Shown here in pieces: positions 33 through 49,280 of a stretch of 64,000 nucleotides of DNA. Position 1 is the first letter of the stretch. Each line of letters opens with the position of its first letter. Location of the stretch: positions 2,201-66,200 of the forward strand of contig JAKAME010000001.1 in NCBI GenBank assembly GCA_021813025.1, given 5' to 3'. A program made the position numbers and the translations under genes. This DNA is from Candidatus Micrarchaeota archaeon (GTDB lineage Archaea; Micrarchaeota; Micrarchaeia; Anstonellales; Anstonellaceae). The notes below the pieces were generated by a model. It was not told the DNA's origin, ran no database searches, and saw nothing but the letters and a program-made list of their open reading frames with translations.

Positions 33-1263
33 TTATAATTCATATAACTCTTCGATGCGGCGCACCATGTGCTGGATAGAGAACTCTTCCTTCATCCTCA
101 ATTTCCCGCTGTCGCCCAGGCGGGCGGCCAGTTTGGGGTCGTCATGCATTCGCAGCATGGCGCCCGCCAGTGCCCCCGCATCCCCGGGCGGCACCAGCAG
201 GCCGTTCTTTTCGTGCTCCACAAGCTCGGGAATGCCCCCGACCGAGGTGGAAACGACCGGAAGCCCGGCGAACATGGCCTCTATCAGGGAATAGGGAAGC
301 CCCTCGCGGATTGAGGGGCAGACGAAGAGGTCGGAGGCGCAAAGCCACTGGCGCACCGTTTCCTGCGGGCAGAAGCCTGCGAAAATCACGCGCTCGGAAA
401 CGCCCGCCTGCCGGCAGAGCTCCTCGATGCCCGCCTTGGTCTTGCCGTCCCCAAGCAGGACAAGCTTGGATGCCGGAACTGCCTTGGAGAATTGGGCGAA
501 TGCCTCCACAAGCTCCCTATGGCCCTTGACAAGCTCGAACACCGCAACGTCGCAGATGAGATAATCGCCGCCCGCCACGCCGTTTTCGCGCCTGAATTCT
601 GCAGAATCCAGCTTGCCAATCCGCGCATCCGGCCTGCGGGGGGCGGTGTAGACCACCTGTATTTTTTCGGGCGGAAGGCCGCGGAGGGAGCGCAATTCCT
701 CCCCTAGATATTTTGCATCAGGCAGGAACAGGTCTACCGAGCGCGAAGTGAGGGCGTCCAGCAGGCGGTCGAGGAGCGGGACCTGGCGCGCGAACGGGGT
801 GTTCAGCACGGAGAAAAGGATTTTTTTCGCCCCCGCAAGGCGGCCTGCCAGCGCTGCGGAATGGCAGGAGAATGCTGCCGGGTAGCCGCCGTTCATGAGA
901 TGCAGCACCGAGCCGCGCGAGCCGCGCAAATGGATGAGGAAGAGGAGGGTGTTGGGCAGGTAAAACAGGTAGCGGAAGCCGAAAAGCCCTGCGCGCATCA
1001 GCAGCTTGGCCGACTCTGGCAGGCGGGAGTGAAGAATCCGGTTGACCAGCCCGTTGGCGCTGAAGAAAAAGACGGAGCGCACCGGAATGGAGGGATGGAG
1101 GTTCTGCCGGATGCGGCCAATGAACTCGCGCTGGCCGTTGCACATGAGCAGCACGTCGTATCCGTCCGCGCGGAGCGAGTTGCACAGGTCGAAGAGGCAC
1201 TGCTCGGCCCCGCCGTGCTGCTGGCTCTCCATGAACAATATGATTTTCCTGGGGGCAGTCATG
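33..1263 (-). CDS. Glycosyltransferase family 4 (GT-B fold)
   Basis: C-terminal EGLPYSLIEAMFAGLPVVSTSVGGIPELV...NGLLV motif typical of GT4. ORF trimmed to the MTAPRKIILF start at 1263. Confidence 0.8.
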
Positions 1264-1278
1264 GGATAAACCCGCACG

Positions 1279-2085
1279 TCAGGCTTTTTTAGCTGCTGCC
1301 AGCACCCGGGCGGCCGCCTGCAGACAGAGGCTCTTGTTTTGGCCGTTGCATGCAACCACGCCTGCCTTCAGGCGCCGGGAGGCATAGGAGATTGGCCAGC
1401 CGTCCAAGCCGTATGCAGAGCCGCCGGCTTGGGACAGAATAATTTCCGGGGCGCAGAGGTCCCAGGCGCCAAGGGCTGCGAAAGTGGCGTAGACGTCCGC
1501 CTCGCCCCGCGCGATTAGCCCGAGCTTTATGCCGATGCTGCCGGTTTGCCGCACATGCCTGATGCCGGCAAGTCTGATGAAGTCCTTCTCGCTCTGGGTG
1601 AGGTGGTTTTTGCTCAAAACTGCCCGCAGCTCTGGGGGCAGACGGCGGGGGGAAACCGAGAGGCGCGCGGGCGCCGAGTTGCCGATTGCGCGATAGGCCC
1701 CCCGGCCAGCCTGCGCATACAGCATTTCATCGGACGCGGGCGCGTAGACGGCGCCAAAAGATGGGCGGCCTGAGAGCAGCAGGCCTGCCATGATGCAGAA
1801 CTGCCCGTCATGGCGGATGAAGTTGGAGGTTCCGTCCAGAGGGTCGAGCAGCCAGCATGAGGGGGGAAGGCCGGCGGGGCCCTCGGTTTCCTCAGACACT
1901 ATGGGATATTCCGACAGGCTGGCCAGCCCGTCCTGCAAAACATGGTTGGAGGCATCGTCGGCTTTCGTGACCGGGCTCTGGTCGCTTTTCTCGCCTGCCC
2001 CAAGCTCGCCGGAGCGGTAAATCTCCATCACGGCAGCGCCCGCGCTGCGCATAAGAGGCAGGATGGAGGAGGGCTGCAAATCCAT
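1279..2085 (-). CDS. Inositol monophosphatase / CysQ-family phosphatase
   Basis: IVSEETEG...WLLDPLDGTSNF metal-binding motifs of the IMPase/CysQ family. Sits inside the glycan cluster. Confidence 0.7.
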   Translation of the reverse strand: MDLQPSSILPLMRSAGAAVMEIYRSGELGAGEKSDQSPVTKADDASNHVLQDGLASLSEYPIVSEETEGPAGLPPSCWLLDPLDGTSNFIRHDGQFCIMAGLLLSGRPSFGAVYAPASDEMLYAQAGRGAYRAIGNSAPARLSVSPRRLPPELRAVLSKNHLTQSEKDFIRLAGIRHVRQTGSIGIKLGLIARGEADVYATFAALGAWDLCAPEIILSQAGGSAYGLDGWPISYASRRLKAGVVACNGQNKSLCLQAAARVLAAAKKA

Positions 2086-3013: not shown

Positions 3014-4189
3014 TTATTCGTCCATCATCTGCTTCTGGAACAGCTTGGCGTCCAGCGGAATATCGCAAAGCACTTTCACTATGCGCTCTGACGCATGGCC
3101 GTCCCCATAGGGCGAGGCGCAGCGGGCTGTGAGGGATTTGCGGAAAGACGGCGACAGGGCTTTCTTGACAGCTGATTCTATGGCCTTCCTCTCATGCCCC
3201 ACGCTGAGCACGTTGCCCCCCTGCTCCCGGCCTGCCTGCCGGGGGCCGATGTTCACCGCAGGCGTGCAGAACGAGGGGGCCTCCAAAATGGCGCTTGAAG
3301 TGTTGCCAACCATGGCCCCGCAATGCTTCATTAAGGAAAGGTAATCGGCATATGGCACGCTTGGGCAAATCCTCACGAGCGGCAGGCGCTTCCTTCTCTG
3401 CTCGATAACCTCAATCATCTGCCTGCCGCCTGCATCTGAGTTGGGGTAAATCAGCACCGCGGGCAGGCGGAGGCTTTCAAGCACGCTGAGGGTGAGGCCC
3501 ATCTGGGAGGCGGCCGCATCAGGGCTTGTGGAGAGAGGATGCTGCAGCACAAGCAGGAAAGGCTTTTTCGGCTCAAGACCGTATTTGCGGCAGATTGAGT
3601 CTTTAGAATCAAGCTTTTGCGAGAGTATGAAATCCACGGCAGGCGAGCCTGCGCGGAAGATGCGCCACTTGGCCTCGCCCATCCTCAGCAGGCGGGCCTC
3701 GCTCTTCTTTGAAACAGGGAAATGGATTTGTGCCAGCTTGGTAATCGCCCCGCGAGCATACTCGTCCAGCCCGCCGGTGGCATTGTCGCCCCCGTGCAAA
3801 TGGGCGAGGGGGATGGACATGTAGGTGGCGGTGATGGCGGCAGTGAGCATCTCGATGCGGTCGCCCAGCACAAGCACTATGTCCGGTTTGAGGCGCCTGA
3901 ATTCGGCAGCCATTCCCTCCACGCCGCGCGAGATGGAGAGGGTGCGCTCATAGGGCGTTTCTTCCTCTTCGTTCATGTTCTGGACCTCGGCATCCGCATC
4001 GAATCCGTCCGCGCGTATCTGGGCTATGGTGTGGCCAAATCTCTTGAGCAGATGCATGCCGCATACCAGAAGCTGCAATTTCAGCCTAGGCTCTTTCCGG
4101 ATTGCACGAAGCAGGGCTGTGAGGATGCCGTAGTCGGCCCGCGTCCCGGTAATCACGCAGATTTTCCTTTGCATAGTCTGCACCTGCAT
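3014..4189 (-). CDS. UDP-N-acetylglucosamine 2-epimerase (hydrolysing), NeuC/LegG-like
   Basis: KICVITGTRADYGIL N-terminus and GDRIEML...HLHGGD motifs of the NeuC family. Confidence 0.8.
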   Translation of the reverse strand: MQVQTMQRKICVITGTRADYGILTALLRAIRKEPRLKLQLLVCGMHLLKRFGHTIAQIRADGFDADAEVQNMNEEEETPYERTLSISRGVEGMAAEFRRLKPDIVLVLGDRIEMLTAAITATYMSIPLAHLHGGDNATGGLDEYARGAITKLAQIHFPVSKKSEARLLRMGEAKWRIFRAGSPAVDFILSQKLDSKDSICRKYGLEPKKPFLLVLQHPLSTSPDAAASQMGLTLSVLESLRLPAVLIYPNSDAGGRQMIEVIEQRRKRLPLVRICPSVPYADYLSLMKHCGAMVGNTSSAILEAPSFCTPAVNIGPRQAGREQGGNVLSVGHERKAIESAVKKALSPSFRKSLTARCASPYGDGHASERIVKVLCDIPLDAKLFQKQMMDE

Positions 4190-4192
4190 TGC

Positions 4193-5308
4193 TCATGCTT
4201 CTACATCCTTCTTATAGATGGGGGCCCCGCTGGCTATTGCAGTCCTGAGCCGCCGGCCAACCAGAGAATACAATTCCTCTGATTTGAATGCCCCCTCAAG
4301 CATGGGCCGTTTTGAAACCAAATCCTCCTCGTGGATTATGCCGCCTGCCTTCAGCCCGCGGGTGGCGAACACGCTTTTTCGCACCAGCTGCCGCGTTGCC
4401 AGCTCGGAAGGCACGGGTTCTTTTTCATGCCTGCCCAGCATAGCAGCATTCTTGTCCAACAGGTGCCTTGACTCTTCTTGCGCCCGGGGCGTCTTTAACT
4501 CCAGCCTGCGTATGAGGGCGACCATCTCCCCCAGCCCGCCGGGCTCCAGCGAGGCGGCATGGTCAGGGCCCTGCATCTTTCTGTCCAGGGTGAAATGCTT
4601 CTCGATTATGCAGGCGCCCAAGCCGACTGCCAGCGCCGGGGCCTCGATTCCCCTGCTGTGGTCGGAATAACCTATGGGAACCGGAAATTCCTTTTTCAGG
4701 GTCAGGATGTTGTTCAGGTTCAGGGAGGAGGGGGGGGCGGGATATTCGCTGGTGCAGTGCAGGATGGCCAGCTGGGTGCAGCCATTGGACTGCAGGAATT
4801 CGTATGCTTTTCTGACCTCCTGCAGGCTGGACATGCCTGTGGAGAGGATGACCGGCTTTCCGCTCTTGGCAGCAGCCTTGAGCAATTGCAGGTTGGTGAT
4901 TTCACCAGACGGGATTTTGTAGGCAGCCACGCCCAGCTTTTCCAAAAGCTCGAAGCTGACGAGGTCAAATGGTGAGGAGAGGAAGAGGATGCCCTTCTTT
5001 TCGCAATAGGTTTTGAGCGTTCGGTAATCCTCTGCCTTGAGCTGCAAACTCTTGAGCATCTCCTGCTGGTTGGCATGGCGCTTGTCATTGGTTTTCTGGT
5101 ATTGGGCTTTGCCGGCCAAGGGGGAGGCGAGCTGCTCAGCCACAAAAGTCTGGAACTTGACCGCGTCTGCCCCCGCCGCATGGGCCGCATCAACAAGCTG
5201 GAGCGCAAGCTTTACGCTGCCGTTGTGGTTGACGCCCGCCTCGGCTATTATGAAGCACGGATGGCCCCGCCCTATGAGCCGGCCTGCGACTGAGAACTCC
5301 TTCTTCAT
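4193..5308 (-). CDS. Nonulosonic acid synthase (NeuB/LegI/PseI family) with C-terminal SAF domain
   Basis: CFIIAEAGVNHNGS...AVKFQTF signature. The C-terminal portion is consistent with an SAF/antifreeze-like domain. Start taken at MKKEFSV. Confidence 0.85.
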   Translation of the reverse strand: MKKEFSVAGRLIGRGHPCFIIAEAGVNHNGSVKLALQLVDAAHAAGADAVKFQTFVAEQLASPLAGKAQYQKTNDKRHANQQEMLKSLQLKAEDYRTLKTYCEKKGILFLSSPFDLVSFELLEKLGVAAYKIPSGEITNLQLLKAAAKSGKPVILSTGMSSLQEVRKAYEFLQSNGCTQLAILHCTSEYPAPPSSLNLNNILTLKKEFPVPIGYSDHSRGIEAPALAVGLGACIIEKHFTLDRKMQGPDHAASLEPGGLGEMVALIRRLELKTPRAQEESRHLLDKNAAMLGRHEKEPVPSELATRQLVRKSVFATRGLKAGGIIHEEDLVSKRPMLEGAFKSEELYSLVGRRLRTAIASGAPIYKKDVEA

Positions 5309-5368: not shown

Positions 5369-6100
5369 CTATTTCTTCCTGCGCTCGCGGGCCCAAAACT
5401 CGGCCCACTTAAAATCCATTTCGTCGTCAATCTCGATGCTGAACTCGCCCCCCACCACAACGTAGCGGGTCTTGTCCGTGATAAAGCGCTTGAGTTGCTC
5501 GTATGCCGCAGTCTCGATGAGGTAGAACGGGCCGCCGAAGTAGGCCTTGGGCAAATCCTGATGGCGGGCGTAATACTTGTCAGGATAGAGGGCGCGCAGA
5601 AGGCCTGTGCCGTCGTCCACTAGGGTCCAGAACGGCGGGTCCTTGGCCTCGAACACCCCGAACACGCTGTCGCAGCGGGGGTCGGTGCGCAGAATCCCGA
5701 TTGCCTTGGCCACGTCCTCCCGCCGCCTGAACGGGGTGGTGGGCATGAGCAGGGCGAAGGCGAGGGGGTATTTGCCATCCTGCCTGAGCAGGCCCAGCCA
5801 GTGTTCCACCACTTCTTTCATTAGCGAGGTGTCCTTGGCAAATTCGGCAGGCCGCTCGATGGCGCGCGCGCCAGCCTTTTTCGCAAGCTCCAGAATCTCC
5901 GCATCGTCGCTGCTCACATACACCCCGCTGAACAGCCCGCTCTTTATGGCGAAATCGATTGTGTGCAGAATCAGCGGCTTGCCGTCAAGCTCGCGCAGGT
6001 TCTTGCGCGGGATTGTCTTGCTGCCCCCGCGCGCGGGGATGAGGCAGGGCATCTTCAGGCTCTCGAAACCTGGCTTGAATGCGACGGCGCTCTTTTTCAT
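5369..6100 (-). CDS. CMP-nonulosonic acid synthetase (acylneuraminate cytidylyltransferase, NeuA/LegF family)
   Basis: IPARGGSKTIPRKN motif. Start ambiguous between 6052 and 6133. Confidence 0.8.
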   Translation of the reverse strand: MKKSAVAFKPGFESLKMPCLIPARGGSKTIPRKNLRELDGKPLILHTIDFAIKSGLFSGVYVSSDDAEILELAKKAGARAIERPAEFAKDTSLMKEVVEHWLGLLRQDGKYPLAFALLMPTTPFRRREDVAKAIGILRTDPRCDSVFGVFEAKDPPFWTLVDDGTGLLRALYPDKYYARHQDLPKAYFGGPFYLIETAAYEQLKRFITDKTRYVVVGGEFSIEIDDEMDFKWAEFWARERRKK

Positions 6101-6111
6101 ACATATCACCT

Positions 6112-7551
6112 TCATAACAATCTGCTGAACCACTGCAGCATGCGCATGCCCACCTCGCCGCTTTTTTCAGGGTGGAACTGGGTGCCGAAAACATTGCCTT
6201 TGCGTATGACAGAGCAGAATTCCTGGCCCCCGTGCACCGAGCTGGCCAGCACCGAGCCCCCGTCCTCGGGCGCCGCGTAGAATGAGTGCACGAAATAGGC
6301 TTCCGAGCCGTCGGGCACGCTCTCAAGCGGAGTTCCATCCCATTGCGCCCCCTTCGGCTTTGAAATCTGGTTCCAGCCGATTTGGGGCACGCGGTAGCCC
6401 GGCTCCCTGACCTCGGGCACAGGCTTGAACGGCAGCACGCGGCCCGGTATTATGCCAAGCCCCCCATGGCGGCCGAATTCGAGACTTTCGGAGAGAAGCA
6501 GCTGCATGCCGAGGCAGATGCCGAAAAACGGCCGGCCGCTCTTCACATAGCCGCGGATGGGGGCGATGAGCCCGCGCTTTTCCAGCTCGCTCATGCCGAA
6601 CCCGAACGCCCCGTCGCCGGGAAGCACGAGCAGCTGGGCCTGCTCTATCTCGGCCGCGCTCGTCACAAGCTTGACAGGATTGCCAAGGTTGGAGAAGGCG
6701 GTGCGCACGCTCTTGAGGTTGCCCGCGCCGTAGTCGATGATGGAGACCTCTTTTGGATTCGGGGAGGGGTTGGCCTGCACGCGGGCAAGCATTGCCTTCC
6801 TTGTCGCGATGCCGGCGCGCGCCAGCTCCTCCTTCACTCCCCCTATGGTGGCGCGGTTGTAGTGCAGTATGGAGGCAAAGCAGGCGCCGTCGCATCCGGT
6901 TTTGCGCAAGCAGTCGGCCACGTCGGCCCCGTCCCGCGCCCCGCCGCAGGCGAGGACAGGGACTGAAACCGAGGATGCGATGCGGCCCAGAAGCTCGTGG
7001 TCATAGCCGGACATCGTCCCTTCCCTGTCCACCGATGTTACCAGAAGCTCGCCGGCGCCGAAGCCCGCCAGCTTTTTCGCCCATTCCAGCGCGTCAAGCC
7101 CCGTGCGCTCGCGGCCGTTGTCAACGTAGCATTCCCATTTCCCTTCATTGAATTTCGCCTCTATCGAGCCGACTATGCACTGCGAGCCGAAGATTTCTGC
7201 AGCCTTGGTAATAAGTTCCGGGTTTCTGGTGGCTGCGGTGTTGATGGCCACCTTGTCCGCCCCCGCGCGCAGGAGCGTGCGCACGTCCTCCACGCTGCGT
7301 ATGCCCCCGCCAACGGTGACAGGTATGTAGATGCCGTTGGACGCCATGTTCTCCACTATTTCGGTGAGGTTGTTGCGCTCATAGAGGCTGGCCACCGTGT
7401 CTATGTAGAGGATTTCGTCAGCTCCCTGCTCGTAATAGCGCTTGGCCAGAACGGCCGGGCTGCCTATGACGCGCAGGCCCTCGAGCTGGATGCCCTTGAC
7501 GACGTTGGGGCCCTTGATGTCCAGGCGGGGTATGATTCGCACCCGTTTCAT
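6112..7551 (-). CDS. Fused imidazole-glycerol-phosphate-synthase-like protein (HisF cyclase domain N-terminal + HisH glutaminase domain C-terminal), glycan-modifying amidotransferase paralogue
   Basis: N-terminal half [10 protein letters not shown]...VTVGGGIR is HisF-like. C-terminal half [11 protein letters not shown]...[11 protein letters not shown]...FVHSF...QFHPEKS is a HisH-like class-I glutamine amidotransferase. Lies between NeuA and the aminotransferase. Confidence 0.8.
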
Positions 7552-7702
7552 AGCACGACCTTTTAGGATAGAACAAGCCTCATGCGGCCAGCTTCATTTC
7601 AAGCGTTCTGTGGAGACCGACCTTTATAACGTTTAATCGCCGGCGATGGGCGGCTTTTTATTCATTCTATTCGAAATAAAAGCAGGATTTTGGCGTGATT
7701 GC

Positions 7703-8839
7703 ATGCCTTTTCGCATACCCCTGCACAAGCACTTTCATGACGAGGCGGACAGCGAAGCGGTCCTGTCGGTGATCCGCCGCGGCATGCACTGGGCCAACGG
7801 GCCGGAAATAGAGCAGCTTGAGAAGGAGCTGGCCGCGTATTCTGGCCTGCCGCACGCGCTTGCGTTCAGCAACGGCACCTGCGCCCTGCACGCCCTGATG
7901 CTGGCAAGCGGCATTGGGCCGGGCGACGAGGTCATCGTCCCCTCATTCACCTTCATAGCCACCGCCAACGCCGTCCTTTTCACTGGAGCCAAGCCGGTGT
8001 TTGCTGACATCGAGCCAAATACGCTGGCGCTGGACGCGCAGGACGTGCGCAGGCGCATCACCAGGAAAACAAAGGCCATCATGCCGATTCATTATGCAGG
8101 CACGCCCGCCTCGCAAATAAACGGGCTTGCGGCCCTTGCAAAGGAGAAGAATCTTCTGCTTCTGGAGGACGCTGCCGAGTCCATTGGCGCGAAGCTGGGG
8201 GGGAAGATGACAGGCGCCTTCGGAGATGCGGGCGTCTACAGCTTCTGCGCCAACAAGGTGATTACCTCGGGGGAGGGCGGGGCGGTGGTCACCCGCTCTC
8301 GCGAGATGCATGAGAAGCTCAAGCTTTTGCGCTCGCACGGGCGGGCCGAGACTGAGAACTACTTCGAGTCCAGCCAGCACATGGATTACGTCGCTCTGGG
8401 ATACAATTTCCGCATGCCCTCCATGGTGGCCGCGCTGGCCCTCTCGCAGCTGCGCAAGATAGACAAAATAATTTCCCTGCGCCGCTCGGTAGCCCAGCAT
8501 TACGGCCGCCTGCTCGCGCCCCTGAGCGGCGTCACGCTGCCCGCCGACGGCGGCGAACTCTTCAGCGTCTACCAGCTCTACACCATCCGCCTCAAGGACA
8601 GGGCCGCGCGCGACGGGCTGAAGAAGCACCTGGAGGGCGCTGGCATCATGTGCAAGGTGTATTTCGAGCCCGTGCACCTCACCCATTTTTACAAGAACGT
8701 GCTCAAATACTCGGAGCGGCTGCCGGTCACTGAGGAGACCGCCTCGCGCGTTCTCTCGCTGCCGATTTATGCTGACATGAAAAAGGAGGAAATCGAGCTG
8801 GTGTGCGGGGAAATCAAGCGCTATTTCCAGGGGGGATGA
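7703..8839 (+). CDS. DegT/DnrJ/EryC1-family PLP sugar aminotransferase (PseC/LegC-like)
   Basis: Family-typical N-terminus and a PLP-binding lysine region FCANKVITSGEGG. Start moved to MPFRIPL. Confidence 0.85.
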   Translation: MPFRIPLHKHFHDEADSEAVLSVIRRGMHWANGPEIEQLEKELAAYSGLPHALAFSNGTCALHALMLASGIGPGDEVIVPSFTFIATANAVLFTGAKPVFADIEPNTLALDAQDVRRRITRKTKAIMPIHYAGTPASQINGLAALAKEKNLLLLEDAAESIGAKLGGKMTGAFGDAGVYSFCANKVITSGEGGAVVTRSREMHEKLKLLRSHGRAETENYFESSQHMDYVALGYNFRMPSMVAALALSQLRKIDKIISLRRSVAQHYGRLLAPLSGVTLPADGGELFSVYQLYTIRLKDRAARDGLKKHLEGAGIMCKVYFEPVHLTHFYKNVLKYSERLPVTEETASRVLSLPIYADMKKEEIELVCGEIKRYFQGG

Positions 8840-8840
8840 C

Positions 8841-9881
8841 ATGGCACAGAACCTGAAAACATTCTTCGACAAAAAAACCATCCTGGTCACCGGCGGGGCC
8901 GGCTCAATCGGCAGCGAGCTGGTGCGCCACCTGGTCAAGAACTACTCGCCGCGCGCGGTGAGGGTGTTTGATTCCAACGAGACCGCGCTTTTCGAGCTTG
9001 AGCAGGAGTTCGGGGTGGGCAACAGCCCCATCCGCCTGTTCGTGGGCGACGTGCGGGACCGCGACCGCCTGCGCATGGCCATGGACGGAGCCGACCTCGT
9101 ATTCCACGCGGCCGCCCTCAAGCACGTCTATCTCAACGAGTACACGCCCGCCGAGGCCGTCAAGACCAACGTGCTGGGCACCCAGAACGTGATTGACATG
9201 GCGCTTGAGAAAAACGTCGAGCGTGTGATAAACATCTCCACAGACAAGGCAGTGGACCCCACCAGCGTGATGGGCACCACCAAGCTGCTTGCCGAGAAGC
9301 TCACCACCGCGGCCAACGGCCAGCGCGGCTCGCGGCGCACGGTGTTCGCATCCGTGCGCTTCGGCAACGTGCTTGCCTCGCGAGGCTCGGTGCTCCCGCT
9401 CTTCGTCAGCCAGATAAGGAAGGGAGGCCCGGTAACGGTGACAGACCCCAAGATGACGCGCTTCTTCATGACCATTCCGGCTGCGGTGTCGCTCATACTT
9501 GAGGCGACCGCGAGGGCGTCGGGGGGCGAGCTGTTCATACTTCGCATGCCATCGATGAAAATCGGCGACCTGGCCGAGGCGGTGGTGGAGAAATACGCCC
9601 CCCGCCTCGGGCGCAAATCATCTGACATCAAAATCAAGGTGATTGGCGCGCGCAAGGGGGAGAAGATGCACGAATCCCTGCTCACCGAGCATGAGCGCCT
9701 GTTCGCCCGCATGAGCGGCGGGCTGATTTGCATCCATCCCGAAATCCTTTCCAGGCACGGCACCGTGCCGGCGCCGGAGGGGCGGCCGGCGGACTGGGTG
9801 GAGGACGCGCTGGTCAGCAGCAGGACTAACAACCTCTCCAAGGCTGAAGTGCGCAAGATGCTGGACGAAGGCGAGGGCTAG
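8841..9881 (+). CDS. UDP-sugar 4,6-dehydratase, CapD/PseB/LegB-like (short form)
   Basis: ILVTGGAGSIGSEL Rossmann motif and MGTTKLLAEKL catalytic YxxxK-like region of the polysaccharide-biosynthesis CapD family. Confidence 0.8.
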   Translation: MAQNLKTFFDKKTILVTGGAGSIGSELVRHLVKNYSPRAVRVFDSNETALFELEQEFGVGNSPIRLFVGDVRDRDRLRMAMDGADLVFHAAALKHVYLNEYTPAEAVKTNVLGTQNVIDMALEKNVERVINISTDKAVDPTSVMGTTKLLAEKLTTAANGQRGSRRTVFASVRFGNVLASRGSVLPLFVSQIRKGGPVTVTDPKMTRFFMTIPAAVSLILEATARASGGELFILRMPSMKIGDLAEAVVEKYAPRLGRKSSDIKIKVIGARKGEKMHESLLTEHERLFARMSGGLICIHPEILSRHGTVPAPEGRPADWVEDALVSSRTNNLSKAEVRKMLDEGEG

Positions 9882-9974
9882 CGCCGGCGGGCGGGCGGCA
9901 GATTTTTGCGCGGCTTGCAATTAAAACTTCCCCTTATCCGCCTGGCATAAATAACTGCGCCCCGCAATTGGACC

Positions 9975-11240
9975 ATGGCCATCTCCATCGAAACCGCCGC
10001 CTTGGCGAATTTCTTCGTCGCGGTGCTGATGCTGCTCTTTTCGTCCCACTTCTTCGGATACCTCTTGGGGCGCTTTTCAATTCCGCGCGTGGTGGGAGAG
10101 ATTTTCGGGGGGCTGGTGCTCGGACCCACCCTGCTGGGCCACTTCTTTCCCCAAACCTATGCCGCCATCTTCCTAGACCAAGGGTTGCTGCTGGCCGGCC
10201 TGTATTGGATAGGGCTTGTGCTGCTGATGTTCATCTCGGGCTTTGAGCTCGCGCCCGGAGTCGAGAGTAAAGACAGGCGCACCATAGCCGCCCTTGTGCT
10301 CGGCACCACCACCATCCCCCTCCTGTGCGGCTGGGCCTTGACCTCGTTCTTTGACCTGGGGGCCTGGATGGGCCCGGCACAGAACGAGCTGGCGCTCAAG
10401 CTCGTCGTCACAGTGGCGCTCGCAGTCACGTCGATTCCGGTCATCTCCAAGATTTTCCTGGATTTGGGCGTCATCCAAACGCGCTTTGCCAAAATCGTGC
10501 TGGCGACCGCCACTATCCATGACATCATCCTATGGGTCTTCGTTTCGGTGGCCACCGGCCTGGTCGCCGCGCAGGCCCTGTCGCTGGCCGGCATTGCATC
10601 CTACGTGCTGGTGACCGTCCTGTTCTTCATGGCGGCCCTGCTCCTCATGCCCCGGATTTTCAAACTCGTTTCGGAGAGGAAACCCCACCTGATTCCCGAC
10701 AGCTATGAGTCCGCGTTCATGGTCCTCATCCTGCTGCTGTTCACGGCCGTAGCTGGCGGGCTGCAGGTCAATCTGGTGTTCGGCGCGCTGCTGGCCGGCG
10801 TGGTGGTCAATTCCATCCAAAGCCGGCGGTTTGAGGACGCCAAGCGCCACGTGAAGGAGTTCTCGATGGCGTTCTTTGTTCCAATCTATTTCGGGGTGGT
10901 CGGCCTGAAGCTCGACCTCTTGCGCCATCTCGACCCGGTCTCCGTCCTGACCTTCATCGCGTTTGCGATGGCGGTGCAGACCGCCGCCGTGCTGCTGACC
11001 ACGCGCCTGCTCAGGTATGACTGGCGTTCCGGCTTCAACTTGGCCATGGCACTTAACAACCGGGGCGGACCCTGCATCGTGCTGGCGACGCTGGCGCTGG
11101 ATGTCGGCATCATCAGCGGGGCCTTTTTCACCGCCTTGGTGCTGCTGGCCATCTTCACCTCCATGACCGCCGGGCTGTGGCTGAAATACGTGCTGGAGAG
11201 AAAGTGGCCCCTGCTGCAAGGCGAGCAGGCAGATGGATGA
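9975..11240 (+). CDS. Cation:proton antiporter (CPA2/Kef-NapA type), polytopic membrane protein
   Basis: Multiple TM helices. N-terminal FGYLLGRFSIPRVVGEIFGGLVLGP is typical of Na+/H+ exchanger family proteins. Confidence 0.75.
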   Translation: MAISIETAALANFFVAVLMLLFSSHFFGYLLGRFSIPRVVGEIFGGLVLGPTLLGHFFPQTYAAIFLDQGLLLAGLYWIGLVLLMFISGFELAPGVESKDRRTIAALVLGTTTIPLLCGWALTSFFDLGAWMGPAQNELALKLVVTVALAVTSIPVISKIFLDLGVIQTRFAKIVLATATIHDIILWVFVSVATGLVAAQALSLAGIASYVLVTVLFFMAALLLMPRIFKLVSERKPHLIPDSYESAFMVLILLLFTAVAGGLQVNLVFGALLAGVVVNSIQSRRFEDAKRHVKEFSMAFFVPIYFGVVGLKLDLLRHLDPVSVLTFIAFAMAVQTAAVLLTTRLLRYDWRSGFNLAMALNNRGGPCIVLATLALDVGIISGAFFTALVLLAIFTSMTAGLWLKYVLERKWPLLQGEQADG

Positions 11241-11273
11241 GCGGATGGCCTGCCGCCGCCCGCTTGGACCGGC

Positions 11274-12269
11274 TCAAACCTTGACCATGAGCCCGCTGCG
11301 GGCCGATGACTTTTTGGCAGCATCCGCTATTTGCACGTCAGACAGGCCGTCGGCGAGGGGGCAGGCGGATTTCTCCTTGCCGTCCAGCACCCGGATGAAA
11401 TGCTCCATCTCGCGCACATACATCCGGTTGCGGTCTTCATGGAGGTCCTGCTCCTGCGCGGCGACCAGGCCTGTGCGAACAACGGCTTTCCCGCTTATGA
11501 AATCGTACGCTGCCGCCCCTTCGGTTCCAATCGCCTTCACCCAGCGGGCCGGCAGGCGGCTGAGATAATCCAGGTGGACGGCCGAGCGGGCGCCGCCCGC
11601 GTGCATGAGCACCACGTCAGCCGTGTCCTCTGTTTCGATTCCCAAGCCCCCGCAGGTGCCGCAGAGGCAGGAGACGCCCGAAACCCGGCCTGCGAGGGCG
11701 CGAACATAGTCGATTTCGTGTATGCCGTCCAGCAGTATGCCGCCGCCAGTGGCCTTTTTGGCCGCGTAATTCTTCAGATAGTCGGTGCCCGGCCGCCATT
11801 CAGGCAGATAGGAGCTGTTGTGGGCCAGCAGCTGGACGATGCTGCCCAGGCGGCCTGAGCGCACGATGCGCTCGAACTCAATGAAGCCTGCATTGAAGCG
11901 CATGTTGCAGCCCACGAGAGTCTTGAGCCTTCTTTTGGCGGCTGCCTTCAGCACCGGCCCAGCGCCGGCCGAGGACATGAACGCGGGCTTTTCCAGAAAG
12001 AAATCCAAATCATGCGACAGGCACAGCTTCACGTGCTGCATGTGCAGGTGATTCGGCGAGCAGATGAGGGCTGCGTCATAGTTGCCGGCTTTCTCGAATG
12101 CCTTCTCGATGCTTGTGAAGGCCTCTGCCCCGCTTGCCTGCGATATTTGCCTCGCCTTTTCCGGGGAGGGGTTGAACACGCCCCCAAGCGTCTCGCCCAG
12201 CTGCACGAGGTTGCGCGCGTGCCGCTGGCCGATGGAGCCGGCGCCGATGAGAAGAAAGGAATAGGTCAT
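11274..12269 (-). CDS. Gfo/Idh/MocA-family NAD(P)-dependent oxidoreductase
   Basis: LLIGAGSIGQRHARNL N-terminal dinucleotide-binding motif and LCSPNHLHMQH...EKP region. Confidence 0.75.
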   Translation of the reverse strand: MTYSFLLIGAGSIGQRHARNLVQLGETLGGVFNPSPEKARQISQASGAEAFTSIEKAFEKAGNYDAALICSPNHLHMQHVKLCLSHDLDFFLEKPAFMSSAGAGPVLKAAAKRRLKTLVGCNMRFNAGFIEFERIVRSGRLGSIVQLLAHNSSYLPEWRPGTDYLKNYAAKKATGGGILLDGIHEIDYVRALAGRVSGVSCLCGTCGGLGIETEDTADVVLMHAGGARSAVHLDYLSRLPARWVKAIGTEGAAAYDFISGKAVVRTGLVAAQEQDLHEDRNRMYVREMEHFIRVLDGKEKSACPLADGLSDVQIADAAKKSSARSGLMVKV

Positions 12270-12306
12270 GTCGACACATCTCGTTTGGGTTAAATAAGGA
12301 TTTTAT

Positions 12307-12418
12307 AGGGAGGAGATGGGGAGGGGGTCAGGAGGAACCTGAAACTGGGGGGAGGGGGAACCCCTCCCCGCGGTTCGGGCACAAGCTTTATGAGCTTGGG
12401 CCGAACCGGATTTAAACC
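12307..12418 (+). repeat. Copy A of about 110-nt element: gggagggggtcaggagga + G-rich palindrome (ggggggagggggaacccctcccc) + gcggttcggg + tRNA-3'-end-like tail
   Basis: About 75% identical to 24018-24160, which ends in the genuine 3' end of the intron-containing tRNA. Confidence 0.55.
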
Positions 12419-13372
12419 ATGAAAATAGTCATCACCGGCGGGGCGGGCTTCATAGGCTCTCACCTGGCGGAGCGGCTCTGCCCACGGCACGAGGTCGTGG
12501 TCATAGACAACCTCTCAAGCGGCAGCATGGAGAATCTGGCCGGGCTGAAAGGAAGAATCAGGTTCGCTCGGGCGGACATCACCTGCCCCGGCGCGCTGGC
12601 GCCGCATTTCTTGGGGGCTGACGCCGTCCTGCACCTTGCCGCCCTGACTTCGGTGGGCGAGAGCGTGAAAAACCCGCAGCCCACGCTCAAGACAAACGTG
12701 GAGGGCACGCGCAACGTGCTGGAGCAGGCGCGCAAATCCGATGTCGGGCGGGTCGTGCTGGCAAGCTCGGCGAGCGTGTACGGGGACGCCAGCAGGCAGC
12801 CTGTGGCCGAGGACGACCCCCTCGCCCCCATGAGCCCCTATGCCGAGTCAAAGATGGTCAACGAGCTGGACGCGCGGGAATATTTCGAGCGCTACGGGCT
12901 GAAAACCATCTCCCTGCGCTATTTCAACGTCTACGGCCCGCGCCAGAGGCCTGACTCGGACTATGCGCCCGTGATTCCCAAGTTCATTTCCTCCATGACA
13001 AGCGGTCGCCGGCCGGTGATTTACGGCGACGGGCGGCAGAGCCGGGATTTCATTTTCGTCAGGGACGTGGCAGGAGCGAACGAGAAGGCGCTGGCGGCCA
13101 GGAAAGGGTTTGGGGAGGCTTTCAACATCGCGTCAGGAAAAAGCGTCAGCATACTCGAGCTCTACCGCGCCATCGCCCGCGAGATTGGATTTTCCGCCCC
13201 GCCGCGCTTCGGGCCCGCGCGGAAGGGCGACATACGCAAAAGCGAGGCCAGCATCGGCAAGGCCAAGGCGGTGCTGGGCTTCTCGCCCTCCACCGGCCTC
13301 AAGGACGGCCTGAAGGAAACTGCCCGGTGGTTCGCCGGCAGGACGGATGCCGAAAAGAGTGGTTTGGAATGA
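12419..13372 (+). CDS. NAD-dependent sugar epimerase/dehydratase (SDR extended family)
   Basis: MKIVITGGAGFIGSHL and YAESK catalytic motif. Confidence 0.85.
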   Translation: MKIVITGGAGFIGSHLAERLCPRHEVVVIDNLSSGSMENLAGLKGRIRFARADITCPGALAPHFLGADAVLHLAALTSVGESVKNPQPTLKTNVEGTRNVLEQARKSDVGRVVLASSASVYGDASRQPVAEDDPLAPMSPYAESKMVNELDAREYFERYGLKTISLRYFNVYGPRQRPDSDYAPVIPKFISSMTSGRRPVIYGDGRQSRDFIFVRDVAGANEKALAARKGFGEAFNIASGKSVSILELYRAIAREIGFSAPPRFGPARKGDIRKSEASIGKAKAVLGFSPSTGLKDGLKETARWFAGRTDAEKSGLE

Positions 13373-14379
13373 AAGTCCTCTACTTCGTCCACACGTTCTA
13401 CCCGGAGCTCAACGGCATCTCTATCCACCTGCATTACCTGACGAAAAATCTCGGAGCCAACGTCGAGACGGTCGTCATGCCGGGCAGGGGTTTCGCCATT
13501 CCGGGCTTTTCATCAATGCGCCTCCCGCTCGCCGAGTTTTTCAGCGCGCTGGGCGCGCCCTGCGACCTGGTGCATGTGCACGGCTACAGCTTTTTCAGCG
13601 GCGCGGGCGCTATTCTGGCCCGCCTGCGCGGCAAGCCGCTGGTGTGGACAGTGCATGGAGTGCCAAAATTCAAGGACAGGCGCAAGTGGCTGCTGGCCCT
13701 CTACGATTTTCTCTTCCTTGGCTGGCTAAAGTCGGCGGACGCGATAATATCGGTCAGCCATGACGCGAAAGTGAAGGAGTGGGAGGGGCAGGGCAGGCCG
13801 ATAAATTATCTGCCAAACGGGGTTGACACCGACTTGTTCAGGCCTGCCGGCTCCTACCGACAGGCGAAATACGCGGCCTACTTCGGCCGCCTTGACAAGG
13901 ACAAGGGAGTGGAGGAGATGATGGGGATACGCTCGCTCCCGGTTCTGCTGGTCGGGCCTGACGAGGGCATGCTTGACAAGCTCAGGGCCATGGGCGGGCT
14001 GCAATACCGCTCGGCCCCGCACGAGGAAATGCCCTCCCTCTACAGCCAGTGCCGCTACGTGCTGCTGCCCTCTCGCTATGAGGGCTACCCGCTCACCATG
14101 CTTGAGGCGCTGGCGTGCGAGCGGCCTTTTGTCGCACGGCCTGTAGGCGAGATTCCGCAGGTGATGAAGGAGCTGCTCGGCGGGGACAAATGGCGGAAAT
14201 ACATGATAGGGGATGACGAGCCTCTGGAAGCGCCGCTCGCCCGCCTTGAGAAGGAGAATCTGGAGCCAGAGCTGAAGGCTGCGCGCAGAAAAATAGAGCA
14301 AACCCTATCATGGAGCGCGGCTGCGGCCCGGACTTGTGCCATTTACGAGCAGGTGCTGGGGAAAAGAAGGCAGAAATAG
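13369..14379 (+). CDS. Glycosyltransferase family 4
   Basis: GT-B N-terminal domain. C-terminal SRYEGYPLTMLEALACERPFV motif. Start ATGA-coupled to the upstream epimerase. Confidence 0.75.
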   Translation: MKVLYFVHTFYPELNGISIHLHYLTKNLGANVETVVMPGRGFAIPGFSSMRLPLAEFFSALGAPCDLVHVHGYSFFSGAGAILARLRGKPLVWTVHGVPKFKDRRKWLLALYDFLFLGWLKSADAIISVSHDAKVKEWEGQGRPINYLPNGVDTDLFRPAGSYRQAKYAAYFGRLDKDKGVEEMMGIRSLPVLLVGPDEGMLDKLRAMGGLQYRSAPHEEMPSLYSQCRYVLLPSRYEGYPLTMLEALACERPFVARPVGEIPQVMKELLGGDKWRKYMIGDDEPLEAPLARLEKENLEPELKAARRKIEQTLSWSAAAARTCAIYEQVLGKRRQK

Positions 14380-14393
14380 GCTGTTTCCCCATT

Positions 14394-16025
14394 CTATTTC
14401 GTTTCTTCTCCGGCATGCAGGCGCGCGTCCCAGAACACCATGCGGGCCAGCGGCGTCTGCCATGCGCGCGGCACCCCGAATTTGGAAAGTATTTTGCCGA
14501 ACACCGCCCTGTCCTCAGGCTCGAAAAGATGCAGCACGTTGACAAGCACAAGGTAGAGCAGGCTGCCCGCGCCCAAAAACACGCCAAGAACCGCCATCTT
14601 GATTAGCTTGTCCAGCACGCCGCCAAGCAGCGCGGAGTCGGGGATGATTATCGGGAGGTGGACCAGCGGGTCATAGGCCGCCAGCTCGATTAGCATGAGC
14701 ACTGCCAGCACCACGGCGCCCGCAAGCAGGTTTTTCCACGCGCTTTGGGGGAATGAGAAGCCCATGCGCCTGCTCGCGTAGTGGTGGTTGACCAGGCTCA
14801 TCACGCTGAAGGCTGCCAGGCTCGCCACGGCGGCGCCGTTGATGCCATAGGCGGGGATGAGCAGCAGGCAGAGCAGGACGTTGACTGCAGCGCCGCAAAT
14901 CATGGAGTAAAGCTCGATGCGCACCAGGCGCATGCCTGCCAGGGCCGTGCGCTGGATTGCGCCCATCGCGCTGGCGAGGGTGCCAAGGCTGAACAGCACC
15001 AGCACCCAGGCCCCTGCCTCGTAGCTGGCGCCATAGAGCGAGCGCAGGATGGGGGCCGCGAAGGCGCAGACGAAAGCCGCGATGGGAACGGAAGAGAACA
15101 GGGTCCAGCGCAGGGCGGTCTGTGACATGCGCTGCACGCGGGCGCGGTCCTCGCGGCCTATCAGTTCGGATACCACAGGCAGGAAGATGGGCGTGATGGA
15201 GCCTGCGAAAATCAGCACCAGGCCGGCGAAGCTGGAGGCTATGGTGTAGATGGCGATTTGGGGGTTTACGTCGCTGGACAGGTAATAGCCCAGCAGCACC
15301 CGGTCGGTGTAGGCAACGAAGTTGGAGAACAGCACCACGCCCACGATGGTGAGGCCGAAGGGGACCATCTCGCGCGCGATGGGCCAGTATGTTTGGAGCG
15401 GGAAGCGCGGATGCTGGCCCAGCGAGGACAGCGGCTTGAGCAGGGCCCACATCAGGTAGAAGCAGGGGATGACGAAGGAGAGCATGTAGGTGATGGAGAG
15501 CGAGCGGGCGTCCACGCCAAGGGTGAAGATGAGGGAGAGCAGCAGGAGGATTTTGAGCACGTTCTGCGCGCTGTAGCCCACAGAGTATGCGTGCAGCTGC
15601 TTGAAGGCGACCAGCAGGCTGAGCAAAATGTTGAATGCGGCGTAAATCGAGAGCTGGATGGCGAGCAGCTGCATCACGGGCCCGAGGCCGGGGTTGTGGA
15701 AGAAGGCGGCGAAGGCGTCCGCCAAGAGGAAAGTGGCTACGCTGCAGAGGGCCAGCAGCGCGGTGCCGGCCGTGACTGAGAAGCGGATGACCTGCTCGGC
15801 GACTGCCTTCTCCTTGCGGCCCAGATGGTAGGGGATGTAGCGCTGAATGGCGGTGGAAAGGCCGAAATCCGCGAAAATGCCCATGATGCCCACGATGCTG
15901 AGGCCGAAATAGAACAGCCCGACCTGCTCCTGCGCGGCGAGGCGGGCTACGAGTATGGTGTAGACAAAAGAGCAGAGCTTGACTATTATGCTGGAGAGGT
16001 TCTGCCACATCGTGCCCTTGGCCAT
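14394..16025 (-). CDS. Polysaccharide/oligosaccharide flippase (Wzx-like, MOP superfamily), 12+ TM
   Basis: Long hydrophobic protein with the Wzx-type topology. Start ambiguous (16010-16070). Confidence 0.7.
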   Translation of the reverse strand: MAKGTMWQNLSSIIVKLCSFVYTILVARLAAQEQVGLFYFGLSIVGIMGIFADFGLSTAIQRYIPYHLGRKEKAVAEQVIRFSVTAGTALLALCSVATFLLADAFAAFFHNPGLGPVMQLLAIQLSIYAAFNILLSLLVAFKQLHAYSVGYSAQNVLKILLLLSLIFTLGVDARSLSITYMLSFVIPCFYLMWALLKPLSSLGQHPRFPLQTYWPIAREMVPFGLTIVGVVLFSNFVAYTDRVLLGYYLSSDVNPQIAIYTIASSFAGLVLIFAGSITPIFLPVVSELIGREDRARVQRMSQTALRWTLFSSVPIAAFVCAFAAPILRSLYGASYEAGAWVLVLFSLGTLASAMGAIQRTALAGMRLVRIELYSMICGAAVNVLLCLLLIPAYGINGAAVASLAAFSVMSLVNHHYASRRMGFSFPQSAWKNLLAGAVVLAVLMLIELAAYDPLVHLPIIIPDSALLGGVLDKLIKMAVLGVFLGAGSLLYLVLVNVLHLFEPEDRAVFGKILSKFGVPRAWQTPLARMVFWDARLHAGEETK

Positions 16026-16111
16026 TACGGCCGTCTCCTCGTCAAGCTCCATAGCAAACCAAAGGGGCATAGCACGGCGACCTTTTAATAATCAAATCAC
16101 ATGATTCGGCC

Positions 16112-19195: not shown

Positions 19196-19566
19196 GTAGT
19201 TGGTGATGATTGTGAACAGTTTCATGCCCAGAAAAATCCCGCAGCCCGCCATATTCGTGGTGCTCAACAGCCAAAAGCGCGAGGAGAAGGCGAGGGAAAA
19301 AGCGCCTGACTCCAACTCCTCGTTCGGGGGCTATCGGCAGTTCGCGTTCAAGCGGGGCGAGGGGCTCGGCAGCGAGCTGATGGGGCGGCAAAAAAATCCC
19401 ATGACAAAGTCGGAGCAGAATGAAACGCCCAAGGACAAGACGCCGGCCAAAAGCGAGGAGACGGCCAAAAGGCCGGCCAATGTTGAAAAGGAAAAACACA
19501 GATTTGATTATGGCCCGGAGGTGCAGCCTGGAGGATTCAGAATACCGCCCGGGACATACTGCTGAT

Positions 19567-19638
19567 TGGACTCGGAGGGATTTGAACCCTCGACCTTTCC
19601 GTTGCAAACGGAACGCGCTACCGCTGCGCCACGAGCCC
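19567..19638 (-). tRNA. tRNA-Ala (anticodon UGC)
   Basis: Reverse complement folds as a cloverleaf GGGCTCG...anticodon loop TTTGCAA...GGTTCAAATCC, with the G3:U70 alanine identity pair. Confidence 0.9.
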
Positions 19639-19730
19639 GCATTAAAATTGGCGCATTTGGGGCTAATAAACAATATGGACGGAAATCCGCCCCCCTCGCC
19701 CATAAAAAGAACTGGGCCTCAGAAAAAGGC

Positions 19731-21113
19731 ATGGATGATTCGCCGGCCCCCCCTCTTTCCCCTCCCGCCAGATGGGGGGAATTCTTGGCGCGCGCGCAGG
19801 AATGCCACGAGGTGGTGGAGCGGATGAAAAGCCCGCTCATAGTCAACCACTACGACTGCGACGGCCTGACTTCGGGGGCAATAGTGTGCGCCTTTTTGGA
19901 AGAAAGAAAAATTCCTTATCGGATTAACACCATACGCAAGCTCGATGAAGCCGTGCTCAATGAAATCAGGCGCGAGCCGGAGCTTGTTTTCACTGATTTG
20001 GGCGGCGGAACTGACGGCGTGCAGGAATTGGAAGGAGAGGTGGTTATTTTCGACCACCATCCAATTGCCCCAAAAAATGCGCGCCTGCAGCTCAACCCGC
20101 ACATGTTCGGGATAGATGGTGGGGCGCAGATGTGCGGAGCCACCACCGCCTATTGGAGCCTGCGCGCCCTGCCTGAAGCGGCCATAGTGGGCGCGGTGGG
20201 GGACGTGCAGTCCCCCATGCAGGGGCCCAACCGCCTGCTGCTGCAGGAGCTGCAGGCGGCGGGAGTGGTGCAGGCACCAATCGACCTCAAGATGTACGGG
20301 CGCATCAGCAGGCCGCTGCCCCAGCTTCTGGCCTATGCGGACGACCCCTATTTGCCCGGCCTTAGCGGGCATGAGGAGAGATGCGCCCAGTTTCTGGAAA
20401 GCATTGCCAAAAGCTTTGGAAAAAAGGATGCTGGGTGGAAGACTTATGGCGAGCTGGATGCGGAGGAGCGCAAAAAGCTCATAGGCGCGCTGGCAGTGCA
20501 TCTGGCGGAAAGCGCAGGGGGCAGGGCGGCCGCCTCCCGCCTGGTTGGCGAAGTCTATCTTTTCCCAAGATTTGCAAACACGCCTGAATTGTATGAGGCG
20601 GGAGAATTCTCCACCCTCATGAACGCCTGCGGCAGGCATGAGCAGCCGCAGCTTGGGATAGACATCTGTTTGGGCAGGGCGGAGGCGCTGGAAAAAGGCG
20701 CTGCCCTGCTTGCCCTGCACCGCAGGCTCCTGCGCGAGGGCGTGGAATATGCTTATGCCAGCGTGCGCGACTGGGGGCCTTTCCTTTTCCTTGACGGCCG
20801 CGGAGTGATTGACGACGGCATAATCGGAGTGGTGGCAGGCATGCTTTATCCGGGCGGGAGGCAGAAGCCCATAGTGGCAATCGCGCTTGACAGGGAGGGG
20901 AAAATCAAGGTTTCCATGCGCGGCACCAAGAAACTTGTGTCACAAGGCCTTAACCTCGGCCTTGCCCTGCGCGAAGCCTGCATGCCGTTGGGCGGGGCGG
21001 GCGGGGGGCACGCCATAGCTGCCGGAGCGAGCGTGCCGCCCGACAGGCTGGACGAGTTTTTGAAGAGCTTTCCGAAAATTTTGCAAAAGCAGATGGTGAA
21101 AGCGGGTGAGTAG
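19731..21113 (+). CDS. DHH-family phosphoesterase with DHHA1 domain (archaeal RecJ/GAN-like or NrnA-like)
   Basis: NHYDCDGLTSGA, FDHHP and C-terminal GGGHAIAAGA motifs. The ORF track N-terminus overlaps tRNA-Ala and was trimmed to MDDSP. Confidence 0.7.
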   Translation: MDDSPAPPLSPPARWGEFLARAQECHEVVERMKSPLIVNHYDCDGLTSGAIVCAFLEERKIPYRINTIRKLDEAVLNEIRREPELVFTDLGGGTDGVQELEGEVVIFDHHPIAPKNARLQLNPHMFGIDGGAQMCGATTAYWSLRALPEAAIVGAVGDVQSPMQGPNRLLLQELQAAGVVQAPIDLKMYGRISRPLPQLLAYADDPYLPGLSGHEERCAQFLESIAKSFGKKDAGWKTYGELDAEERKKLIGALAVHLAESAGGRAAASRLVGEVYLFPRFANTPELYEAGEFSTLMNACGRHEQPQLGIDICLGRAEALEKGAALLALHRRLLREGVEYAYASVRDWGPFLFLDGRGVIDDGIIGVVAGMLYPGGRQKPIVAIALDREGKIKVSMRGTKKLVSQGLNLGLALREACMPLGGAGGGHAIAAGASVPPDRLDEFLKSFPKILQKQMVKAGE

Positions 21114-46275: not shown

Positions 46276-46276
46276 C

Positions 46277-47122: not shown

Positions 47123-47131
47123 CCGTCCTTT

Positions 47132-49056: not shown

Positions 49057-49071
49057 CAGACTCCGTTCTAC

Positions 49072-49242: not shown

Positions 49243-49280
49243 GATTATCACCAGATTATACGACGCCGGCTTATAATAAA

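Follow-up and report, generated by a model that had tools for sequence, protein, structure and literature searches.

The gene analyzed here is a single open reading frame (ORF) with both HisF-like and HisH-like domains, at positions 6112–7551 on the minus strand of a 64-kb stretch of a Candidatus Micrarchaeota archaeon contig (JAKAME010000001.1); that whole stretch is referred to as the window. The evidence supports identification of this fusion as a glycan-associated HisF/HisH paralogue, as the first-pass annotation of the window had proposed, and not as the histidine enzyme, because of its signature residues, its position in a tree with 91% bootstrap support, a hisF model score below cut-off, and the NeuB/NeuC and WbuX context of its relatives. 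Together with those relatives it forms what is termed here lineage 1. Since the gene shows no decay, we consider it probable that the fusion is still a functional ammonia-supply module, working with a WbuX amidotransferase encoded elsewhere in the genome.

The reading frame fills exactly 6112–7551, starts with ATG, and encodes 479 amino acids (aa) plus the stop codon, an assignment based on the ORF list, Pfam, NCBIfam, identical loci on other contigs, and an AlphaFold (AF2) model. Pfam recognized a His_biosynth (HisF/HisA) barrel at aa 5–233 (E 3.5e-63) and a class-I glutamine amidotransferase (GATase) at aa 271–473 (E 8e-18), in agreement with the initial description of a single-polypeptide HisF-HisH fusion. 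From the signature table, the family alignment, and Foldseek, the HisF-like (beta/alpha)8 barrel was delimited to aa 1–252 (6796–7551, minus strand). It is followed by a linker of approximately aa 253–267 (6751–6795, minus strand), placed from columns 300–385 of the family alignment and from a dip in the predicted local distance difference test score (pLDDT), which falls to 73 at residues 251–260; both length and sequence of the linker vary across the fused family. The remainder, aa 268–479 (6115–6750, minus strand), is a HisH-like class-I glutaminase by TIGR01855 and by its conserved triad, C346/H460/E462, with interface residue K463; the triad was conserved in all groups compared. The order of the domains is the reverse of yeast HIS7, as had also been claimed, with the N-terminal glutaminase of PDB 1jvn (residues 7–211) aligning to query residues 269–475 in the C-terminal half. 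The barrel keeps the ammonia-gate residues R5, E46, K100, and E168 (the last two equivalent to K99 and E167 of Thermotoga maritima) as well as D11 and K19, and the interface pair D98/K181 and both glycine-rich phosphate sites are also retained; its catalytic face is remodeled, with R9, E131, N145, and E177 in the protein's own numbering and C/F at T. maritima positions 222/223. The AF2 model, built from 120 family sequences, had a pLDDT of 93.7 and a predicted template modeling score (pTM) of 0.93, and its barrel superposed on HisF structures with template modeling (TM) scores of 0.91–0.97 (0.96–0.97 to HisF-LUCA) in Foldseek; this comparison addresses the fold of each domain, and docking between domains was judged solely from the pTM of 0.93 and the conserved interface residues.

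Records of 9 contigs contain an identical protein, and in the five loci retrieved the gene DNA matches that of the window at 100% identity; fused homologues comprise more than 120 full-length clusters (450–545 aa, 47–63% identity), so the fusion is neither an assembly artifact nor a one-off. At near-invariant positions (≥95% conserved among 119 relatives) the window protein has kept 100 of 102 residues; two or more deviations at such positions are found in 34% of family members, and the window protein is thus typical. GC content at third codon positions is 0.79 in the fusion gene, like that of its host cluster, while the loci of relatives have 27–49% GC; this native composition points to long residence in the genome.

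Curated family models did not claim the barrel for any HisF class. It scored 265.9 bits with TIGR00735 (hisF), below the cut-off of 294.55 and the 364–372 bits of true archaeal his-operon HisF, 260.6 bits with TIGR03572 (WbuZ; cut-off 299.7), and 184.3 bits with NF038364 (AglZ/HisF2; cut-off 310). The only one of these models to be passed was TIGR01855 (HisH), at 182.4 bits against 105.4 with the triad present; that model does not separate HisH from WbuY, and the glutaminase half carries no lineage signature. Curated models were rejected as sole arbiter, the hisF and WbuZ scores being near equal and both under cut-off.

The context-labeled comparison included about 145 HisF-like genes among the loci listed from genome and metagenome scans and homologue look-ups, most of them in canonical his operons that served as controls; the host's own genome was not among the scanned loci. 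Neighbors were classified by purpose-built hidden Markov models (HMMs) for HisF, HisH, WbuX, NeuB, and other cluster genes. Signature positions are given in T. maritima numbering, in which E130 is window residue 131. Canonical his operons had the gene order hisH-(hisA)-hisF, and in a first set their HisF carried C9, D130, and D176 in 73/73 genes, G144 in 72/73, L222 in 73/73, and A223 in 70/73; in a larger set C-D-G-D was found at 9/130/144/176 in 138 genes. The PDB titles HisF-C9S and HisF-D130V+D176V independently confirm the T. maritima residues at 9, 130, and 176. The window protein has R9, E130, N144, E176, C222, and F223, with D11 kept, and the WbuX-linked proteins of the first set had R/K9 and E130 in 14/14, N, C, or H at 144, and mostly E176. 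Lineage 1 comprises proteins encoded in the order F-H, fused or split, in NeuB/NeuC clusters beside WbuX, with R/K9, N/C/H144, mostly E176, and altered 222/223. Lineage 2 has the order X-H-F (X being WbuX) and a mostly canonical-like signature (C or I at 9, D130, D176; loci L160 and L165), and it maps to the WbuZ model TIGR03572, with L165 reaching 300.8 bits. A third WbuX-linked set, the second of two sets in locus L016, matches AglZ/HisF2 (NF038364, 353 bits). All lineage-1 proteins scored below every cut-off (hisF 243–293 bits, WbuZ 248–284, AglZ 184–206), and lineage 1 is thus a third WbuX-associated HisF lineage, outside all of the curated models.

Phylogenetic analysis of the barrel domain by neighbor-joining (NJ), with bootstrapping on a subsample drawn from 170 taxa, showed 24 lineage-1 sequences including the window protein as one bipartition with 91/100 bootstrap support, apart from his-operon HisF including archaeal ones (Nitrosopumilaceae, Bathyarchaeum). 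The branch of the window protein was of ordinary length and fell among those of fused archaeal proteins linked to WbuX. Fused proteins were not monophyletic in this tree (5/100), and no single origin of the fusion is claimed. A tree of the HisH half had no lineage-specific clade or signature (bootstrap 0), the triad and interface lysine being universal. There were no his genes in the 64-kb window, and neither hisA nor any other his gene occurred in any of 28 lineage loci.

Among relatives the association with WbuX was close. WbuX was adjacent in 13/13 other fused loci (L006–L011, L015, L095, L096, L175–L178), directly downstream of the fusion in 12 of them and convergent in L177, and it was within 5 kb in 25 of 27 lineage loci, with the only two other lineage members lacking a visible WbuX both on short contigs. 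The identity of these WbuX genes is given by TIGR03573 scores of 364–375 bits against a cut-off of 203 in three of the 13 fused loci, by 486–776 bits with the purpose-built HMM in all 13, and by an SGGKDS PP-loop in 4/4 inspected. For 17 further fused proteins, a contig shared with a WbuX match is implied from record figures. WbuX also lay within 5 kb of 12 split F-H loci, and the split order F-H-X, found for example in Azospirillum thermophilum, shows that the fusion simply joins adjacent genes. Three fused loci (L008, L015, L176) have both a formyltransferase and WbuX; in L102, a 5-kb contig with no visible WbuX, a formyltransferase-family gene sits exactly in the usual WbuX slot.

Several arrangements among these loci were unusual. 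In L177, from a Promethearchaeota metagenome-assembled genome (MAG), two divergent WbuX paralogues flank the fusion at 8716–9852 and 11474–12721 (690 and 348 bits with the WbuX HMM), and one ammonia module may serve two amidotransferases. Locus L016 of Neisseriaceae bacterium JH1-16 has two complete WbuX-HisF-HisH sets of different lineages within 7764–15241, one X-F-H of lineage 1 and the other H-F-X, in which the barrel is of AglZ/HisF2 type (353 bits) and WbuX is very divergent. In L012 (an Azospirillum lipoferum plasmid) and L013 (an Alistipes plasmid), WbuX occurs with no HisF/HisH-like gene detected by six-frame HMM search of up to 8 kb on each side. These two are the mirror image of the window locus, and the linkage of WbuX with HisF/HisH is not absolute in either direction. 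HisH/HisF partners are reportedly dispensable for WbuX, and L012 and L013 fit this.

A number of observations weigh against a functional module with a distal partner. Neither the 64-kb window nor the 4 kb past its left end (read from overlapping contig L001), together the region covered by our reading of gene context, contains WbuX. It was not found by NCBIfam search of all unannotated large ORFs of the window or by tblastn of the window and L001–L005 with three WbuX proteins as queries, which also detected no wbuX remnant. Scans for PP-loop and tetracysteine motifs found no other PP-loop enzyme in the window, the few tetracysteine pattern matches lying in spurious antisense ORFs. WbuX-free sequence flanks the fusion, at least 10 kb of it to one side and 56 kb to the other, and at the usual WbuX position there is a clean 4-nucleotide (nt) overlap with the cytidylyltransferase gene. 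Of the fused members sampled, the window fusion alone lacks WbuX, and wherever else sampling was adequate WbuX lies within 5 kb, so that a distal partner would be unusual in this family. In a WbuX profile search, none of the best 120 of at least 8000 family members was attributable to this organism. The barrel also falls short of all three curated cut-offs, those of WbuZ and AglZ/HisF2 no less than that of hisF, and position 130 is D, A, or V in three lineage-1 members and E in most. The first-pass annotation had gone on to suggest an amidino-modified nonulosonic acid, and this is not yet supported because the catalytic partner is unlinked or missing, with no amidine-forming WbuX, PseA, or AglX in the region covered.

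If the module does work with a distal WbuX, its mechanism may be predicted from known enzymes. By homology with imidazole glycerol phosphate (IGP) synthase, the C-terminal domain would hydrolyze glutamine via C346/H460/E462, and ammonia would enter the barrel through the R5/E46/K100/E168 gate and exit at the remodeled C-terminal face. It would then normally be passed to WbuX, which would activate the sugar N-acetyl group with ATP, the ammonia turning N-acetyl into acetamidino. WbuX/NASAT, a PP-loop ATP-pyrophosphatase whose crystal structure has been solved, carries a Zn tetracysteine motif and has been proposed to ligate ammonia to the sugar N-acetyl group (PMC10607449). In Methanococcus maripaludis, deletion of the WbuX homologue removes the acetamidino group, and flagellins appear smaller when the HisF-like MMP1083 is deleted (PMC2952790).

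An alternative explanation, which we regard as unlikely, is that after loss of WbuX the module came to deliver ammonia to some other acceptor enzyme or that its own barrel amidates a nucleotide-sugar or nonulosonate, with the formyltransferase-dependent branch as a candidate pathway. In favor of this, WbuX and other PP-loop enzymes are absent locally, yet the gene is conserved, translationally coupled, and compositionally native, and the lineage changes cluster on the catalytic face (9, 130, 144, 176, 222, 223) with both phosphate sites kept, a pattern suggesting ligand binding by the barrel, beyond a role as a passive pipe. The arrangement of L102 also fits, but that locus is a contig of just 5 kb, there is no precedent for such an activity, and all 13 other fused loci keep WbuX, including the three with a formyltransferase. 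Moreover, conversion of an amide to an amidine needs activation, e.g. by ATP, and we know of no HisF barrel that provides activation chemistry of this kind. More specifically, and quite improbably, the fusion could act without WbuX by binding nucleotide-activated or free nonulosonate at the remodeled face (R9/E130/N144/E176) for glutamine-dependent amidation, or by passing ammonia to a non-PP-loop enzyme of an N-formyl, sulfated glycan pathway. If true, this would add a reaction to those known for the HisF fold, and the HisF-like partners of WbuXYZ systems would be catalysts, not just ammonia pipes.

It is also rather improbable that the fusion is a non-functional relic, WbuX having been lost too recently for decay to have followed. 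The usual partner is indeed missing, and all available assemblies represent one clonal population with 100% identical DNA and so are uninformative on selection within the species. However, the ORF is intact, with 100/102 near-invariant positions and all catalytic and gate residues kept, the ATGA junction with the next gene is clean with no wbuX remnant, and compared with every relative the locus has undergone extensive rearrangement and compositional amelioration, suggesting a long independent history without decay. That the fusion is a housekeeping IGP synthase, i.e. a true HisF/HisH lying in a glycan cluster by chance, is scarcely credible: its best NCBIfam score is nominally that for hisF (265.9 bits against 260.6 for WbuZ) and the protein retains D11, the gate residues, and the glycines that bind phosphate, but that score is under cut-off, genuine archaeal HisF scoring 364–372 bits, C9, catalytic D130, G144, and D176 are all replaced, the protein lies in the WbuX-linked clade at 91% bootstrap, his genes occur in 0/28 lineage loci with his-operon HisF always in the order H-(A)-F, and the fused family occurs in MAGs of Woesearchaeota and Nanoarchaeota, groups generally held to lack amino-acid biosynthesis.

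An ammonia-supply module partnered by a distal WbuX can be compared with several known systems. In the Escherichia coli O145 O-antigen locus, WbuY and WbuZ are HisH/HisF paralogues beside the PP-loop amidotransferase WbuX (TIGR03572, TIGR03573), with a proposed role in ammonia supply for acetamidino formation, and the same association is found in relatives of the window protein. The first-pass annotation was correct in pointing to HisH/HisF paralogues in glycan loci but named them wbuX/wbuY, whereas the paralogues are WbuY/WbuZ and WbuX is the amidotransferase. At the window, elements of the WbuZ-type context are present, namely a HisH partner as a fused domain and a saccharide locus, with WbuX absent from the window and L001. 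The window protein differs from WbuZ in scoring below the TIGR03572 cut-off (260.6 against 299.7), loci that reach or near that cut-off (L165, L160) being the X-H-F sister lineage, and from the WbuXYZ system as a whole in having HisF and HisH in one F-H chain and no WbuX at the locus. The AglX/AglY/AglZ system of M. maripaludis (MMP1081–1083) is likewise archaeal, with a WbuX/WbpG homologue needed for an acetamidino N-glycan sugar and a HisF-like gene that also affects the glycan (PMC2952790), but its HisF is of a different lineage (184 bits for the window protein against a cut-off of 310), it targets ManNAc3NAmA, its proteins are separate, and the amidotransferase is present. IGP synthase (T. 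maritima 1GPW; yeast HIS7 1JVN) shares the fold (TM 0.91–0.97), triad, D98/K181 pair, and gate residues, and HIS7 is also a single chain, but the window fusion has the reverse domain order to HIS7, has C9, D130, and D176 replaced, is of a lineage never found in a his operon, and falls below the hisF cut-off. In Campylobacter jejuni, PseA with Cj1314c/Cj1315c is a WbuX-family enzyme beside hisF/hisH paralogues and is linked to the acetamidino nonulosonic acid PseAm; this system is likened to the window locus by description, being bacterial, specific to pseudaminic acid, and composed of separate proteins, with PseA present.

HisH/HisF paralogues serving WbuX were already known, and what is new here is the widespread fused architecture and a lineage outside the curated models; our literature searches found no description of the fused architecture or of lineage 1. 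Where sources name them, lineage-1 proteins are labeled HisF or HisH, including those in Woesearchaeota, Nanoarchaeota, Asgard, and Omnitrophota MAGs, and such labeling can lead to overestimates of the capacity for histidine biosynthesis. Lineage 1 can be told from housekeeping HisF by four residues alone (9, 130, 144, 176). Positions 130 and 176 are those mutated in the HisF variant crystallized with rCdRP (PDB 4ewn), and the lineage changes on the catalytic face, including these two, suggest that the barrel does more than conduct ammonia. A single-chain fusion would lend itself well to biochemistry and to structural work with WbuX, and the window locus is a natural test of whether the module acts alone.

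The fusion lies within a glycan cluster beside a NeuA-like gene, as was noted at the outset, its stop codon overlapping the start of the cytidylyltransferase gene by 4 nt (ATGA), with NeuB and NeuC following. That gene (5369–6115, minus strand) was called as a CMP-nonulosonate cytidylyltransferase of NeuA/LegF/PseF-like type (PF02348; PseF model 137 bits, below cut-off). Next are a NeuB/LegI-type nonulosonate synthase (4193–5308, minus strand; PF03102 3e-95; TIGR03569 402.7 bits, cut-off 399.65) and a hydrolyzing UDP-sugar 2-epimerase of NeuC/LegG type (3014–4189, minus strand; TIGR03568 395.8 bits, cut-off 235.9). Homologues of this NeuB carry the name N,N'-diacetyllegionaminate synthase; the closest relative has 65% identity and is on a 2-kb contig, others have at most 53%, and no usable locus context came from them. 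A formyltransferase-family gene at 2115–2984 on the plus strand (PF00551 7.9e-20), whose assignment also draws on relatives' clusters and on a precedent in Halorubrum (PMC6137143), occupies the slot held in relatives' clusters by a hexapeptide N-acetyltransferase. Divergent from the fusion is a DegT-family sugar aminotransferase, LegC/PseC-like (7646–8839, plus strand; PF01041 2e-112; PseC and LegC models below cut-off), followed by a UDP-GlcNAc 4,6-dehydratase of PseB/FnlA/LegB-like type (8841–9881, plus strand; PF02719 1.5e-104; PseB model 306.6 bits, below the 407.75 cut-off). About 20 nt before the aminotransferase ATG at 7646 there is a TTTATAA box (window 7620–7650), which fits a leaderless archaeal transcript starting from that ATG, not the shorter 378-aa public gene call. 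The right part of the cluster (11274–16070) has, by Pfam, a GFO/MocA oxidoreductase, an NAD epimerase/dehydratase, a GT4 glycosyltransferase, and a Wzx-type flippase. Amid these sugar genes, between the 4,6-dehydratase and the oxidoreductase, is a Na+/H+ exchanger gene (9975–11240, plus strand, 421 aa). The left part (33–2085, minus strand) holds another GT4 glycosyltransferase (33–1355) and a CysQ-like PAP phosphatase (1279–2085), and L001 extends the cluster leftward with two methyltransferases, a sulfotransferase, an APS kinase, and an ATP sulfurylase. The phosphatase, together with the sulfotransferase, APS kinase, and ATP-sulfurylase fusion (L001 19116–21440), constitutes a full sulfation module, in which the ATP sulfurylase is a large PK/PUA_2/ATP-sulfurylase fusion of about 797 aa. 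From this gene content the glycan is probably sulfated and methylated.

All six Leg-type functions are present, i.e. 4,6-dehydratase, aminotransferase, N-acyltransferase (with the formyltransferase in this role), 2-epimerase, NeuB-type synthase, and cytidylyltransferase. To judge from its gene content, the cluster specifies a legionaminic-acid-type 5,7-diamino nonulosonate, Leg itself and an epimer being indistinguishable by sequence, and the sugar is probably N-formylated. This is consistent with Halorubrum sp. PV6, in which legB, legC, legF, legG, a formyltransferase, and legI underlie an N-glycan carrying both N-formyl-legionaminic acid and a sulfated sugar (PMC6137143); this set of enzymes recurs in the window, together with sulfation genes. 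However, HisH and an amidotransferase are unmentioned in that report, and the window enzymes are distant, mostly below the Leg/Pse model cut-offs.

Outside the cluster, archaeal markers in the window included aIF6, FtsY, an archaeal-type PheRS-beta, and HerA. Both aIF6 and the transketolase fall into 90% clusters with proteins bearing the name Candidatus Marsarchaeota, a group (Tardisphaeria) with members now in culture. A complete-looking LysW/AAA-type lysine and arginine pathway was found at 43952–57045 (minus strand), with homocitrate synthase, homoaconitase subunits, homoisocitrate dehydrogenase, two LysX/ArgX ATP-grasp ligases, LysZ, LysY, LysJ, and LysK, so the organism is not a reduced auxotroph. 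There are two carbamoyltransferase-family genes (23078–23980 and 50536–51447) and two TnpB/IS605 OrfB-type genes with a Cas12f-like TNB domain, at 24416–25681 (minus strand, GC 0.54) and 49379–50512 (plus strand, GC 0.48), both below their surroundings in GC; the second of these interrupts the LysW cluster, with a LysX-like ATP-grasp gene on one side and a carbamoyltransferase on the other. A 214-aa ORF at 57412–58056 (plus strand) has only a tubulin/FtsZ GTPase domain; the ORF after it (58038–58700, plus strand; 220 aa, no clear family) lies in a different frame and overlaps it slightly. The pair may represent an FtsZ/CetZ-like gene that is split or frameshifted, or the first may be a short tubulin-family protein. 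The only tRNA in the window, tRNA-Ala(TGC) at 19567–19638 (minus strand), overlaps the annotated TTG start of a DHH/DHHA1 phosphoesterase ORF (19566–21113), the true start of which is probably further downstream.

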